The position numbers and the translations under genes were made by a program. The notes beneath the pieces are model-generated. The model searched no databases, was not told where the DNA came from, and saw only the letters and a program-made list of their open reading frames with translations. Of a stretch of 64,000 nucleotides of DNA, positions 3,484-39,118 are shown piece by piece. This DNA is from Eledone cirrhosa (lineage: Eukaryota): contig OZ024741.1 of NCBI GenBank assembly GCA_964016885.1, positions 95,666,001 to 95,730,000 on the forward strand. Reading direction: 5' to 3'. Within the stretch, counting starts at the first letter, position 1, and each line of letters opens with the position of its first letter.

Positions 3484-4270
3484 CCGACACAAAGTAAAAC
3501 TAGGATACTCCTGCGCTAAGAACATGAAGGCCCACATCACCAGCAGCCCTAGGAGCAACACTCCACCAGGGTGCTATTGCCGTAAGCCCGAAGCTTGTCC
3601 CCTTCAACAGCAATGCAACACACCAGCTGTAATTTATGAAGCTGTGGTCACTTCCAATCGACCAAACCAACCACAGGAGGTCAAATCCTATGTGGGCATG
3701 GCGGAGGGCCGATTTAAGGAACGTTTCCTGAACCATCAGTCGACCTTCAGGTACTCGGACAGACGTTCATCCACGAAACTCGTGAGCCACGTATAGTCCC
3801 TCAAAGACTCAAGTTTAGACTACTCCATTCAATGGAAAGCCATCACTAAGTCCAAGCCATACGCAAGGGGAAATCCGTCGTGTGGACTGTGTATTGACGA
3901 ACGAATAACTATTCTAAAGAAATTATGCAATAGTGATTGCCTAAACACGAGTAATGAATTTTTCACACGTTGTCCACACGTCTCGAAACACCTATTGCAT
4001 AACTACAAAGCTCCGGATTGAATGAATTATTGTAACAACATCAATATTTTTTCTTATCAACTAAAAACTTTTCGGACTTTCGCAGTTATCTCCCTTACAC
4101 CTCCCGCACGTACTTTAGTATTGCCTGTGTGAAGTGCGGGTTTCTGAGCATGCGCGTTCGTACGGTTGTCCTTCCTGTTCCGTATAACCATGCCCATTAC
4201 GAGCTGAGGATCCGCTAAGGTGAAACAATTGTTCTCGGTATGGTGAACTAACTGTTGTGTAACCACTTCT
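3482..4270 (+). mobile_element. 5'-truncated Penelope-like element: GIY-YIG endonuclease remnant plus 3' terminal repeat
   Basis: KVKLGYSC...CPLQQQC...VIYEAVV...SYVGMAEGRFKERFLNH...T.L..HV; one in-frame stop at 3794, then IQWKAI...CGLCIDE...CLNTSNEFFTRCPH to about 4022; flanked on both sides by (TA)n. Confidence 0.85.
4187..4244 (+). ncRNA. Type I hammerhead ribozyme in PLE 3' repeat
   Basis: ACCATGC..CGAG CTGAGGA TCCGCTAAGGT GAAA CAATTG TT CTCG GTATGGT: both core boxes, stem I CGAG/CTCG plus ACCATGC/GTATGGT, palindromic stem III. Confidence 0.8.
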
Positions 4271-21812: not shown

Positions 21813-21871
21813 ATTTATATATGATAAATAATATAATATATACTGTGTATAAATAAATAAATATATATTTT

Positions 21872-23488
21872 TTAAACAATTAAGTTAAAGTGTACATCTA
21901 CATATGTATACGGAAGCACTAGTATGCATATAAATACACACATGTATACATATGTACATGTACGGAGTTTTTCACTAGACACTCCACAGTGAGTGTCAGC
22001 CAGCCCGCATGCAACCACACAGACGGACCGGGCCCCAGAGTCACACGAGCCCCCAAGGAAACACACTTCCTCCATTCTCCAGAGGGCCAGACAGGAATAT
22101 TGGACTAGTTTCGATGTTATTACATCTCATCAGCAATATTTACCCATCTTCCGGCTTCTCTGCAGAATTGTAAAAGCACATATCGTTATGTGCTTTTTCT
22201 ATGAAAATTAATAGTGGGTAGACCAATTTGCATAGAACGTGAGTCATTGTACGCACCGGTTCAGCGGAAACGATAAAAACAAATAACGAAACGAAATTAA
22301 ATTTCGCTTCGCTTCTAACTCACTTTTGTATGACTGACGCTTAAACAATTAAGTTAAAGTGTACAACTACATATGTATACGGAAGCATTAGTATGCATAT
22401 AAATACACACATGTATACATATGTACATGTACGGAGTTTTTCACTAGACACTTTACAGTGAGTGTCAGCTAGTCTGTATGTAACCACACAGACGGACCGG
22501 GTTTTAGAGTCATACGAGTTTTCAAGGAAACACATTTCCTCTATTCCCCAGAGGGCCAGACAGGAATATTGGACTAGTTTCGATGTTATTAACTCTCATC
22601 AGCAATATTTACCCATCTTCCGGCTTCTCTGGAGAATTGTAAAAGCACATATCGTTATATGCTTTTTCTATGAAAATCAGTAGTGGGCAGACCAATTCGC
22701 ATAGAACGTGAGTCATTGCACGCACCGGTTCAGCGGAAACGATAAAAACAAATAACGAAACGAAATTAAATTTCGTTTCGCTTCTAACTCACTTTTGTAT
22801 GACTGACGCTTAAACAATTAAGTTAAAGTGTACATCCACATATGTATACGGAAGTATTAGTATGCATATAAATACACACATGTATACACATGTACATGCA
22901 CGGAGTCTCTCACTAGACACTCCACAGTGAGTGTCAGCCAGCCCGCATGCAACCACACAGACGGACCGCGCCCCAGAGTCACACGAGCCCCCAAGGAAAC
23001 ACACTTCCTCCATTCTCCAGAGGGCCAGACAGGAATATTGGACTAGTTTCGATGTTGTTACATCTCATCAGCAATATTTACCCATCTTCCGGCTTCTCTG
23101 GAGAATTGTAAAAGCACATATCGTTATATGCTTTTTCTATGAAAATTAGTAGTGGGTAGACCAATTTGCATAGAACGTGAGTCATTGTACGCACCGGTTC
23201 AGCGGAAACGATAAAAACAAATAACGAAACGAAATTAAATTTCGCTTCGCTTCTAACTCACTTTTGTATGACTGACGCTTAAACAATTAAGTTAAAGTGT
23301 ACATCTACATATGTATACGGAAGCATTAGTATGCATATAAATACACACATGTATACATATGTACATGTACGGAGTTTTTCACTAGACACTTTACAGTGAG
23401 TGTCAGCTAGTCTGTATGTAACCACACAGACGGACGGGGTTTTAGAGTCATACGAGTTTTCAAGGAAACACATTTCCTCTATTCTCCA
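21872..23488 (-). repeat. 469-bp hammerhead-containing tandem repeat, inverted arm (about 3.4 units, 3 ribozymes)
   Basis: ORF track periodicity of 469; reverse-complement ribozymes with GACTAG at 22103, 22572 and 23041. Confidence 0.95.
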
Positions 23489-26400
23489 AAGCGAAACGAA
23501 ATTTAATTTCGTTTCGTTATTTGTTTTTATCGTTTCCGCTGAACCGGTGCGTGCAATGACTCACGTTCTATGCGAATTGGTCTGCCCACTACTGATTTTC
23601 ATAGAAAAAGCATATAACGATATGTGCTTTTACAATTCTCCAGAGAAGCCGGAAGATGGGTAAATATTGCTGATGAGATGTAATAACATCGAAACTAGTC
23701 CAATATTCCTGTCTGGCCCTCTGGAGAATAGAGGAAATGTGTTTCCTTGAAAACTCGTATGACTCTAAAACCCGGTCCGTCTGTGTGGTTACATACAGAC
23801 TAGCTGACACTCACTGTAAAGTGTCTAGTGAAAAACTCCGTACATGTACATATGTATACATGTGTGTATTTATATGCATACTAATGCTTTCGTATACATA
23901 TGTAGATGTACACTTTAACTTAATTGTTTAAGTGTCAGTCATACAAAAGTGAGTTAGAAGCGAAGCGAAATTTAATTTCGTTTCGTTATTTGTTTTTATC
24001 GTTTCCGCTGAGCCGGTGCGTACAATGACTCACGTTCTATGCAAATTGGTCTACCCACTACTAATTTTCATAGAAAAAGCACATAACGATATGTGCTTTT
24101 ACAATTCTCCAGAGAAGCCGGAAGATGGGTAAATATTGCTGATGAGATGTAATAACATCGAAACTAGTCCAATATTCCTGTCTGGCCCTCTGGGGAATAG
24201 AAGAAATGTGTTTCCTTGAAAACTCGTATGACTCTAAAACCCGGTCCGTCTGTGTGGTTACATACAGACTAGCTGACACTCACTGTAAAGTGTCTAGTGA
24301 AAAACACCGTACATGTACATATGTATACATGTGTGTATTTATATGCATACTAATGCTTCCGTATACATATGTAGATGTACACTTTAACTTAATTGTTTAA
24401 GCGTCAGTCATACAAAAGTGAGTTAGAAGCGAAGCGAAATTTAATTTCGTTTCGTTATTTGTTTTTATCGTTTCCGCTGAACCGGTGCGTACAAGGACTC
24501 ACGTTCTATGCAAATTGGTCTACCCACTAATAATTTTCATAGAAAAAGCATATAACGATATGTGCTTTTACAATTCTCCAGAGAAGCCGGAAGATGGGTA
24601 AATATTGCTGATGAGATGTAATAACATCGAAACTAGTCCAATATTCCTGTTTGGCCCTCTGGAGAATAGAGAAAATGTGTTTCCTTGAAAACTCGTATGA
24701 CTCTAAAACCCGGTCCGTCTGTGTGGTTACATACAGACTAGCTGACACTCACTGTAAAGTGTCTAGTGAAAAACTCCGTACATGTACATATGTATACATG
24801 TGTGTATTTATATGCATACTAATGCTTCCGTATACATATGTAGATGTACACTTTAACTTAATTGTTTAAGCGTCAGTCATACAAAAGTGAGTTAGAAGCG
24901 AAGCGAAATTTAATTTCGTTTCGTTATTTGTTTTTATCGTTTCCGCTGAACCGGTGCGTACAAGGACTCACGTTCTATGCAAATTGGTCTACCCACTAAT
25001 AATTTTCATAGAAAAAGCATATAACGATATGTGCTTTTACAATTCTCCAGAGAAGCCGGAAGATGGGTAAATATTGCTGATGAGATGTAATAACATCGAA
25101 ACTAGTCCAATATTCCTGTCTGGCCCTCTGGAGAATAGAGAAAATGTGTTTCCTTGAAAACTCGTATGACTCTAAAACCCGGTCCGTCTGTGTGGTTACA
25201 TACAGACTAGCTGACACTCACTGTAAAGTGTCTAGTGAAAAACTCCGTACATGTACATATGTATACATGTGTGTATTTATATGCATACTAATGCTTCCGT
25301 ATACATATGTAGATGTACACTTTAACTTAATTGCTTAAGCGTCTGTCATACAAAAGTGAGTTAGAAGCGAAGCGAAATTTAATTTCGTTTCGTTATTTGT
25401 TTTTATCGTTTCCGCTGAACCGGTGCGTACAATGACTCACGTTCTATGCAAATTGGTCTACCCACTACTAATTTTCATAGAAAAAGCATATAACGATATG
25501 TGCTTTTACAATTCTCCAGAGAAGCCGGAAGATGGGTAAATATTGCTGATGAGATGTAATAACATTGAAACTAGTCCAATATTCCTGTCTGGCCCTCTGG
25601 AGAATGGAGGAAGTGTGTTTCCTTGGGGGCTCGTGTGACTCTGGGGCCCGGTCCGTCTGTGTGGTTGCATGCGGGCTGGCTGACACTCACTGTGGAGTGT
25701 CTAGTGAGAGACTCCGTGCATGTACATATGTATACATGTGTGTATTTATATGCATACTAATGCTTCCGTATACAAATGTAGATGTACACTTTAAGTTAAT
25801 TGTTTAAGCGTCAGTCATACAAAAGTGAGTTAGAAGCGAAACGAAATTTAATTTCGTTTCGTTATTTCTTTTTATCGTTTCCGCTGAACCGGTGCGTGCA
25901 ATGACTCACGTTCTATGCGAATTGGTCTGCCCACTACTGATTTTCATAGAAAAAGCATATAACGATATGTGCTTTTACAATTCTCCAGAGAAGCCGGAAG
26001 ATGGGTAAATATTGCTGATGAGATGTAATAACATCGAAACTAGTCCAATATTCCTGTCTGGCCCTCTGGAGAATAGAGAAAATGTGTTTCCTTGAAAACT
26101 CGTATGACTCTAAAACCCGGTCCGTCTGTGTGGTTACATACAGACTAGCTGACACTCACTGTAAAGTGTCTAGTGAAAAACTCCGTACATGTACATATGT
26201 ATACATGTGTGTATTTATATGCATACTAATGCTTCCGTATACATATGTAGATGTACACTTTAACTTAATTGTTTAAGCGTCAGTCATACAAAAGTGAGTT
26301 AGAAGCGAAGCGAAATTTAATTTCGTTTCGTTATTTGTTTTTATCGTTTCCGCTGAGCCGGTGCGTACAATGACTCACGTTCTATGCAAATTGGTCTACC

Positions 26401-29158
26401 CACTACTAATTTTCATAGAAAAAGCACATAACGATATGTGCTTTTACAATTCTCCAGAGAAGCCGGAAGATGGGTAAATATTGCTGATGAGATGTAATAA
26501 CATCGAAACTAGTCCAATATTCCTGTCTGGCCCTCTGGAGAATGGAGGAAGTGTGTTTCCTTGGGGGCTCGTGTGACTCTGGGGCCCGGTCCGTCTGTGT
26601 GGTTGCATGCGGGCTGGCTGACACTCACTGTGGAGTGTCTAGTGAGAGACTCCGTGCATGTACATGTGTATACATGTGTGTATTTATATGCATACTAATA
26701 CTTCCGTATACATATGTGGATGTACACTTTAACTTAATTGTTTAAGCGTCAGTCATACAAAAGTGAGTTAGAAGCGAAACGAAATTTAATTTCGTTTCGT
26801 TATTTGTTTTTATCGTTTCCGCTGAACCGGTGCGTGCAATGACTCACGTTCTATGCGAATTAGTCTGCCCACTACTGATTTTCATAGAAAAAGCATATAA
26901 CGATATGTGCTTTTACAATTCTCCAGAGAAGCCGGAAGATGGGTAAATATTGCTGATGAGATGTAATAACATCGAAACTAGTGCAATATTCCTGTCTGGC
27001 CCTCTGGAGAATAGAGGAAATGTGTTTCCTTGAAAACTCGTATGACTCTAAAACCCAGTCCGTCTGTGTGGTTACATACAGACTAGCTGACACTCACTGT
27101 AAAGTGTCTAGTGAAAAACTCCGTACATGTACATATGTATACATGTGTGTATTTATATGCATACTAATGCTTCCGTATACATATGTAGATGTATACTTTA
27201 ACTTAATTGTTTAAGCGTCAGTCATACAAAAGTGAGTTAGAAGCGAAGCGAAATTTAATTTCGTTTCGTTATTTGTTTTTATCGTTTCCGCTGAACCGGT
27301 GCGTACAAGGACTCACGTTCTATGCAAATTGGTCTACCCACTAATAATTTTCATAGAAAAAGCATATAACGATATGTGCTTTTACAATTCTCCAGAGAAG
27401 CCGGAAGATGGGTAAATATTGCTGATGAGATGTAATAACATCGAAACTAGTCCAATATTCCTGTCTGGCCCTCTGGAGAATAGAGAAAATGTGTTTCCTT
27501 GAAAACTCGTATGACTCTAAAACCCGGTCCGTCTGTGTGGTTACATACAGACTAGCTGACACTCACTGTAAAGTGTCTAGTGAAAAACTCCGTACATGTA
27601 CATATGTATACATGTGTGTATTTATATGCATACTAATGCTTCCGTATACATATGTAGATGTACACTTTAACTTAATTGCTTAAGCGTCAGTCATACAAAA
27701 GTGAGTTAGAAGCGAAGCGAAATTTAATTTCGTTTCGTTATTTGTTTTTATCGTTTCCGCTGAACCGGTGCGTACAATGACTCACGTTCTATGCAAATTG
27801 GTCTACCCACTACTAATTTTCATAGAAAAAGCATATAACGATATGTGCTTTTACAATTCTCCAGAGAAGCCGGAAGATGGGTAAATATTGCTGATGAGAT
27901 GTAATAACATCGAAACTAGTCCAATATTCCTGTCTGGCCCTCTGGAGAATGGAGGAAGTGTGTTTCCTTGGGGGCTCGTGTGACTCTGGGGCCCGGTCCG
28001 TCTGTGTGGTTGCATGCGGGCTGGCTGACACTCACTGTGGAGTGTCTAGTGAGAGACTCCGTGCATGTACATGTGTATACATGTGTGTATTTATATGCAT
28101 ACTAATACTTCCGTATACATATGTGGATGTACACTTTAACTTAATTGTTTAAGCGTCAGTCATACAAAAGTGAGTTAGAAGCGAAACGAAATTTAATTTC
28201 GTTTCGTTATTTGTTTTTATCGTTTCCGCTGAACCGGTGCGTGCAATGACTCACGTTCTATGCGAATTGGTCTGCCCACTACTGATTTTCATAGAAAAAG
28301 CATATAACGATATGTGCTTTTACAATTCTCCAGAGAAGCCGGAAGATGGCTAAATATTGCTGATGAGATGTAATAACATCGAAACTAGTCCAATATTCCT
28401 GTCTGGCCCTCTGGAGAATAGAGGAAATGTGTTTCCTTGAAAACTCGTATGACTCTAAAACCCGGTCCGTCTGTGTGGTTACATACAGACTAGCTGACAC
28501 TCACTGTAAAGTGTCTAGTGAAAAACTCCGTACATGTACATATGTATACATGTGTGTATTTATATGCATACTAATGCTTCCGTATACATATGTAGATGTA
28601 CACTTTAACTTAATTGCTTAAGCGTCAGTCATACAAAAGTGAGTTAGAAGCGAAGCGAAATTTAATTTCGTTTCGTTATTTGTTTTTATCGTTTCCGCTG
28701 AACCGGTGCGTACAATGACTCACGTTCTATGCAAATTGGTCTACCCACTACTAATTTTCATAGAAAAAGCATATAACGATATGTGCTTTTACAATTCTCC
28801 AGAGAAGCCGGAAGATGGGTAAATATTGCTGATGAGATGTAATAACATCGAAACTAGTCCAATATTCCTGTCTGGCCCTCTGGAGAATGGAGGAAGTGTG
28901 TTTCCTTGGGATCTCGTGTGGCTCTGGGGCCCGGTCCGTCTGTGTGGTTGCATGCGGGCTGGCTAACACTCACTGTGGAGTGTCTAGTGAGAGACTCCGT
29001 GCATGTACATGTGTATACATGTGTGTATTTATATGCATACTAATACTTCCGTATACATATGTGGATGTACACTTTAACTTAATTGTTTAAGCGTCAGTCA
29101 TACAAAAGTGAGTTAGAAGCGAAGCGAAATTTAATTTCGTTTCGTTATTTGTTTTTAT
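23489..29158 (+). repeat. 469-bp hammerhead-containing tandem repeat (retrozyme-like), about 12 units
   Basis: CTGATGA cores at 23670 + 469n through 28829 (12 copies); two monomer classes. Confidence 0.95.
23663..23707 (+). ncRNA. Minimal type I hammerhead ribozyme (representative of 15 copies)
   Basis: AATATTG CTGATGA GATGT AATA ACATC GAAA CTAG TC CAATATT: 7-bp stem I, 5-bp stem II closed by G-C, palindromic ACTAGT stem III, GUC cleavage triplet (after 23700). Confidence 0.92.
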
Positions 29159-29221
29159 ATATTTTTTATTTTACCATATTTATATATTATATGTATTATT
29201 TGATACTTAGTATACTATAAT

Positions 29222-38671: not shown

Positions 38672-39118
38672 TTATAAATGTAAGTTATCGCCGTATTTTG
38701 ACTAAAGAAATTAAAGAAATTATTTAGCCTGATAGTGGGGTTAAGAAACCTCGGAGAAATGGAAAACGATGAGTATTGACGTACATGGGAGTCGAACCCA
38801 CATATTTGGTTATCCAGACCACTGTGCTACCATTTACACCAAAACATCACCTGTTTTTTTCCCATTCAAATTAGAAGCTATAAACTTAGCGACTGTAATG
38901 TCAAGTAAGAATATTTTCGAAACAGCGAGCGGGTTTGAAATTATTATGTACGTCAATACTCATCTTTTTCCATTTCTTTGAGGGTTCTTAACCCCACTAT
39001 CAGGCTAAATAATTTCTTTAATTTCTTTAGTCAATAGCTTACATTTATAATAGGCGATAGCTTACATTTATAATAATTTCAAACCCGCTCGCTGTTTCGA
39101 AAATATTTTTACTTGATA
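38672..39118. repeat. Nested inverted-repeat module in (TA)n
   Basis: 38699-38750 is the inverse of 38980-39033; 38901-38948 is the inverse of 39070-39116. Confidence 0.7.

Follow-up and report, generated by a model that had tools for sequence, protein, structure and literature searches.

Organization of the array

The window analyzed here is a 64,000-nt stretch of the Eledone cirrhosa genome (contig OZ024741.1, positions 95,666,001–95,730,000 of the forward strand). Positions 21872–29158 are occupied by a two-armed, head-to-head insertion built from a 469-nt non-coding hammerhead unit, a non-LTR retrozyme. The inverted arm (21872–23488, minus strand) comprises four pieces and the plus arm (23489–29158) thirteen. 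The array carries 15 minimal type I hammerheads at a 469-nt spacing, the first of which, a motif match at 23663–23707 on the plus strand, has a predicted cut after 23700. The motif is assembled from stem I (AATATTG/CAATATT), a CTGATGA core, and a palindromic ACTAGT at stem III. No ORF of 100 aa lies inside the array, and its hammerheads gave no match in an Rfam scan at the gathering score. A possible 11-nt target-site duplication (left, 21863–21873 on the plus strand; right, 29157–29167) is weak and of low complexity.

Cutting the array after each GAAACTAGT(C/G) places the plus-arm cut sites at 23700 + 469n, the last at 28859, and the minus-arm sites at 23041, 22572, and 22103. The pieces fall into two classes, A and B, in the order given by an initial annotation of this DNA: B-tail, A, A, A, A, B, A, B, A, A, B, A, B-partial in the plus arm and A, B, A, B in the inverted arm, where the last piece is a partial B. 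Class B is defined by 27 marker sites between unit positions 30 and 363, leaving a gap of 135 nt (364 to 29 of the following unit) across the ribozyme; the marker-free zone of about this size and the G cluster starting at 30 had both been described correctly. Examples are the pure B unit at 27922–28390 (plus strand), with 27 A>G sites that are dense at 27951–28073 and sparse at 28125 and 28243–28284, its pure counterpart in the inverted arm (22572–23040, minus strand), the A unit at 28391–28859 (plus strand), which has G at positions 186 (28576) and 265 (28655) and is termed A' as lightly edited, and the marker-free zone at 28285–28419 (plus strand). When the array is cut inside the gap, one of 14 units is mixed in class; cuts elsewhere yield 9–11 mixed units of 13–15.

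Early and late B markers had been said always to travel together. The markers are real, and their linkage can be checked in the four complete B units alone (25577, 26515, 27922, and 22572–23040), the other three B pieces being truncated. The late marker TCTGCCC (353G) is indeed present in B, but a larger sister subfamily has it as well, as its usual state. One complete B unit, 26515–26983 (plus strand), has its cleavage triplet altered to GTG.

Class switches number 15, with 11 in the gap and four off-site in three units; a single-site reversion at position 52 of unit 28860 was excluded from the count. Two off-site switches lie in the mixed B unit at 25577–26045 (plus strand), which contains an A-type tract bounded at 142–152 and 204–265. 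Another lies in the terminal piece at 28860–29158 (plus strand), which is B up to position 204 and A-type at 265, and the fourth in the last minus-arm piece (21872–22102), where B gives way to A-type in the interval 119–132. Mixed B units had been ascribed to later gene conversion; DNA exchange is indicated, and the third mixed unit, 28860, had been overlooked.

Instead of the loose A–B higher-order repeat first proposed, the plus arm displays a five-unit repeat, in which 24639–26983 corresponds to 26984–29158. At lag 5, classes match in 7 of 8 comparisons and six derived markers are shared (permutation p = 0.012, with a statistic picked after looking at the data). Counted from their 3' ends, both arms begin B, A, B, A; BB is absent from 15 junctions (p about 0.05), and T382C is common to both arms. 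The markers of A units recombine inside units, and private changes in the array amount to 0.36%.

The element family

The retrozyme family is low in GC and dispersed over the 3.0-Gb genome, from dimers to long multimers. The sister subfamily, with at least 7,150 units, has 204G as well as 353G as its normal state. Two-armed insertions whose arms end at about 299 and 230 are typical of the family: 171 of the 189 partial-unit 3' ends in the fetched loci lie at ~230 or 299, and the arms of the window insertion end at unit positions 231 and 299. Short inverted arms ending before the ribozyme were found at 18 of 72 two-armed loci, three of which are probably self-palindrome matches.

The element class is known already. 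Metazoan non-LTR retrozymes consist of tandem non-coding units with one type I hammerhead each (Cervera and de la Pena 2020, PMC7229834), and the window array resembles them, as described there, in its non-coding tandem units, type I hammerhead, low GC, and dispersed multimers. Its unit of 469 nt is slightly above the 150–450 bp quoted for them. Compared with retrozymes in the accessible parts of the published accounts, insertions of the window family differ in being two-armed with fixed 3' ends, and genomic copies differ in carrying fixed A>G tracts.

Penelope-like elements have been proposed to copy circles into tandem cDNA (PMC7229834; 10.64898/2026.07.22.740005) and initiate reverse transcription from fixed internal positions (Frangieh et al. 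2024, PMC11167929). The window insertion shares with the elements of the latter study fixed internal 3' ends, AT-rich targets, a tandem arrangement, and a minimal hammerhead, but its unit lacks an ORF. In the accessible text of that study, reads ending at the hammerhead site presumed for its Penelope-like element were not found. The fixed ends and inverted arms of the window family fit Penelope-like mobilization. The window unit has no real DNA similarity to the neighboring Penelope-like copy beyond an AT/AC palindrome, and the ORF neighboring the array gave a weak RVT_1 match below the cut-off, weak reverse-transcriptase matches in the PDB, and no Pfam endonuclease match.

A-to-G changes fixed in DNA

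Class B had been taken for the product of an edited RNA, and the polarity and neighbor bias of its changes uphold this reading of an A-to-G-edited RNA unit copied into DNA. First, the B sites are almost all A outside the window; in 284 pieces from 51 loci, A proved ancestral at each B site examined. The changes in B units comprise 27–28 A>G against 1–5 other differences, and a genome-wide pattern search found the G cluster confined to the window and one further locus, L065. Second, the changes are strand-asymmetric when fixed throughout an array. Across 108 arrays, the array-fixed variants, which are private among the arrays compared, include 21 A>G and 1 T>C of 34, against 27 of each among 284 singletons; after hand removal of query-selected sites and two intermediate-subfamily loci, 13 A>G and 0 T>C remain, at 8 and 0 loci. 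Third, in B and the edited locus L148 together, the edited fraction by 5' neighbor is 41/193 for T or A and 5/102 for C or G (p = 1.5 × 10−4), which matches the upstream-G depletion at hyper-edited sites (Porath et al. 2017, PMC5625713). Sites common to B and L065 over positions 30–363 number 16 versus 9.1 expected (p = 0.001).

ADAR editing followed by reverse transcription is the clear reading of this pattern, with ADAR as the presumed editor, and the array likely carries RNA edits that were copied back into DNA and then multiplied. A-to-G hypermutated retroviral DNA was reportedly described by Hajjar and Linial, and the window changes are likewise clustered and on one strand. ADAR hyper-edits repeat dsRNA, and octopus is among the species with the highest hyper-editing (PMC5625713). 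The window changes resemble that process, as described there, in being clustered, A>G on one strand, and depleted of upstream G, whereas they differ from hyper-editing of RNA in being fixed in chromosomal DNA and tandemly repeated. The available text of PMC7229834 names editing merely as a possible source of RNA heterogeneity, and the term ‘ADAR’ is absent from the accessible part of Li, Clavereau and Pollet 2026 (10.64898/2026.07.22.740005). No paper returned by literature searches, with most subscription papers outside their coverage, dealt with fixed edits in retrozyme arrays.

The heavily edited unit had been thought to be joined to an unedited one, which is contradicted by two A>G changes of the A units' own and by a variant they share with B. 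At position 186, copies outside the window have A in 234 of 234 pieces, and at position 265 in 198 of 199, the exception being L065; at both positions the window A units have G and B mostly A. Both window classes have likely been edited, at 27 and 2 sites. The shared variant, A139C, is present in both classes and both arms, and A and B are therefore traced to one source haplotype. Its A-type pattern occurs at 10 places in the assembly, all in the window array, and no source array with A139C was found there.

In the unit's own fold, 11 of the 27 B sites are paired, compared with 79 of 116 unedited As. The monomer stems were considered as the edited duplex, a proposal left unsupported by B sites that are mostly unpaired. 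Because of this, the dense tract of B likely formed against an antisense arm, which would have served as its dsRNA partner.

Edited copies at other loci

Among the loci examined, L148 (G000:C17, 2251–3016) is the cleanest single-circle case. Its 19 A>G sites extend over both arms and more than one turn, with six edits identical in one turn and the next and ten common to both arms, and its 154G motif occurs nowhere else in the assembly. The edit-free zone of the window array recurs in L148, where every turn is edited and a class boundary is absent. L156, from another family with a 474-nt unit, displays a near-perfect (XY)n alternation with 14 A/G sites and one other variant. Its sites split 11:3 at the cut, although a random cut is equally good in 294 of 948 positions, and its densest arc (13:1) starts 72–92 nt upstream of the site and crosses it. 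The heavy unit of L156 begins at 29–30, like B. Since L148 repeats its edits over successive turns and L156 has a two-unit period, circular one- and two-unit templates are likely, as judged from the sequences of these two loci. L155 is a mosaic with a lineage switch within 70 nt starting at the cleavage nucleotide; it lies on a 41-kb contig and may represent two events or an assembly join.

At L065 (G000:C28, 3400–5800), a stretch of ~2.5 kb is a retrocopy of a TA microsatellite harboring a retrozyme. Edits pervade this copy, reaching the microsatellite flanks, the inverted junction, and the ribozyme core. Its unedited original is L082 (G000:C1462), from which it differs by mismatches that are A>G in 71 of 71 cases over 519 nt. 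L065 was rejected as a direct counter-example to phasing: as an uncut read-through it is a control, with no bearing on class switches. No further two-class edited array was found among 14 additional loci and L157, and in L169, 60G units are scattered and their markers shuffled.

Clustered A>G marks also define lineages, one of seven loci (L118 and L150–L155) and one of four (L138, L140, L145, and L147); the three edits of L118, once considered private, mark the former. The spread of A>G-marked lineages to seven and four loci implies that edited units can stay mobile. At L128 and L141, lineage markers differ between the two arms of what looks like one insertion, as if two RNAs had been copied.

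Proposed phasing to the cleavage site

The B tract falls within one cleavage-defined unit, as the initial annotation held. The repeated boundary had been treated there as many observations, but it goes back to a single edited molecule, and the probability that a tract of 334 nt misses the site by chance is 0.29. An edited stretch between two cut sites is a single event and could be chance. Treating the 11 of 15 switches as independent (p = 0.0005) was rejected, as they are largely copies within the five-unit repeat; a hand count of independent later switches gives 2–3 in the zone and 3 outside (p = 0.24–0.45). The 135-nt zone makes up 29% of the unit and is the longest identity block between the classes, with 55–83% of the identity-weighted length at minimum-homology thresholds of 20–50 nt. 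Homology-driven gain and loss of units would favor the zone for this reason.

The zone has a structure of its own, a hairpin (unit positions 376–400) plus an extended stem I (404–438 with 1–29 of the next unit). Its predicted fold has a z-score of −5.9, and the first B edit, at 30, is the first base beyond the stem. The ribozyme domain, with 30 As, has zero edits in both B (p = 0.001) and L148 (p = 0.01). The ribozyme stem is not immune, being edited in L065 and L116, and L065 is edited in the catalytic core. This suggests that amplification was confined to units whose ribozymes remained cuttable.

Class switches had been expected to cluster at the cut in other arrays as well. DNA-level switches speak against this: five of the six other arrays with four-gamete conflicts have at least one conflict wholly inside a unit, some of these being explicable by recurrent mutation, and the site-spanning intervals (7 of 12, with widths of 173–438 nt) are uninformative. 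At the RNA level, combining the window, L156, and L155 (0.29, 0.31, and 0.15) by Fisher's method gives p = 0.20, which leans toward the earlier proposal of phasing and falls short of demonstrating it. The editing signal greatly exceeds chance expectation; the phasing does not when it is scored by independent events.

Origin of the two-class array

A two-class array raises the question of how a multi-unit template arises, whether from a cut that is skipped or from ends joined at the cut. The window locus is too overwritten by DNA turnover to decide this alone, and the boundary by itself does not establish that monomers were joined at the cut. With moderate confidence, we favor a two-unit RNA from a single source, edited unevenly, copied round into both arms, and later reshuffled as DNA. 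A single transcript of one source array would have supplied both units, and ADAR would have edited them to different extents (27 versus 2 sites). A Penelope-type enzyme would then have made repeated circuits of a circular dimer template, generating the cDNA of both arms, and DNA-level duplication and conversion among units would have followed. The heavy tract would happen to leave the ribozyme untouched at both of its ends, probably in part because ribozymes had to stay cuttable. The class boundary would lie at the ribozyme because this one tract stops short of it and because the zone is the longest identity block. Several observations stand against this scenario: the A139C source array is missing from the assembly, the presence of T382C in both arms requires inter-arm conversion or a larger template, and a boundary at the site or close to it is compatible with each of three independent events. 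The scenario also does not account for the B-left/A'-right chimera in which both arms terminate.

Alternatively, and more tentatively, two cleaved monomers may have been edited separately, one heavily and one lightly, and fused head to tail at the hammerhead cut, with rolling-circle copying and DNA shuffling afterward. Crosswise ligation has been considered as a route, as has a reverse transcriptase jumping from a 5' end to another 3' end. Dimeric hammerhead action is discussed in PMC7229834, and the palindromic stem III could hold two RNAs as a double hammerhead, through which circles might fuse. The 27:2 split at the site in the window, where the best one-unit arc includes the site, agrees with joining, as do the 11:3 split of L156 with its heavy unit starting as in B, the switch of L155 next to the cleavage nucleotide, and the edit-free ribozyme domains of B and L148. 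Yet the combined Fisher test does not separate these events from chance, the densest arc of L156 (13 of 14 sites) crosses the site, L148 has an identical edit-free zone without a class boundary, and L155 may be two events or an assembly join. Moreover, the units of the window and of L156 each share one source haplotype, where joining in trans should often mix lineages. If joining did occur, genomic arrays would preserve traces both of recombination between RNAs at a ribozyme and of ADAR edits that became heritable.

A mosaic formed entirely at the DNA level is improbable. An edited cDNA unit would have entered an A' array or its source by conversion and spread by unequal exchange in the longest identity block, making a multi-unit RNA template unnecessary. 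The five-unit duplication, the off-site switches, the four-gamete conflicts inside units of five of six other arrays, and the private divergence of 0.36% all accord with such exchange. However, B retains the ancestral A at 186 and 265 and was thus not transcribed from A' units, B occurs in both arms with the same alternation, and L156 alternates cleanly with a single other variant.

It is very improbable that the A/G difference has a non-editing origin: G>A deamination of A units is ruled out by the polarity of the family (A ancestral), recombination with the sister subfamily, whose state B shares at 204G and 353G, is ruled out by the absence from B of that subfamily's other diagnostic changes, and these sources, like an assembly artefact, are opposed by the strand asymmetry of array-fixed variants, the 71/71 A>G mismatches between L065 and L082, and the identical sites shared by seven copies.

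Since each set of edits tags an individual RNA molecule, its recurrence along an array is a test of the proposed but unproven copying of retrozyme circles into tandem DNA, and it documents how transient edits turn into heritable sequence.

Other features of the window

Two inverted hammerhead-like motifs of another family lie at 49316–49452, and further hammerhead-like motifs occur at 4204, 10677, 16763, 17011, 30384, and 47605. A tRNA-like match is located at 38777–38848 on the minus strand. Positions 52603–56982 hold a long run of TTG plus a G-rich 33-nt tandem array whose GC skew is near 1, and a 444-nt duplication at 39598–40483 is present in two copies of 99% identity.
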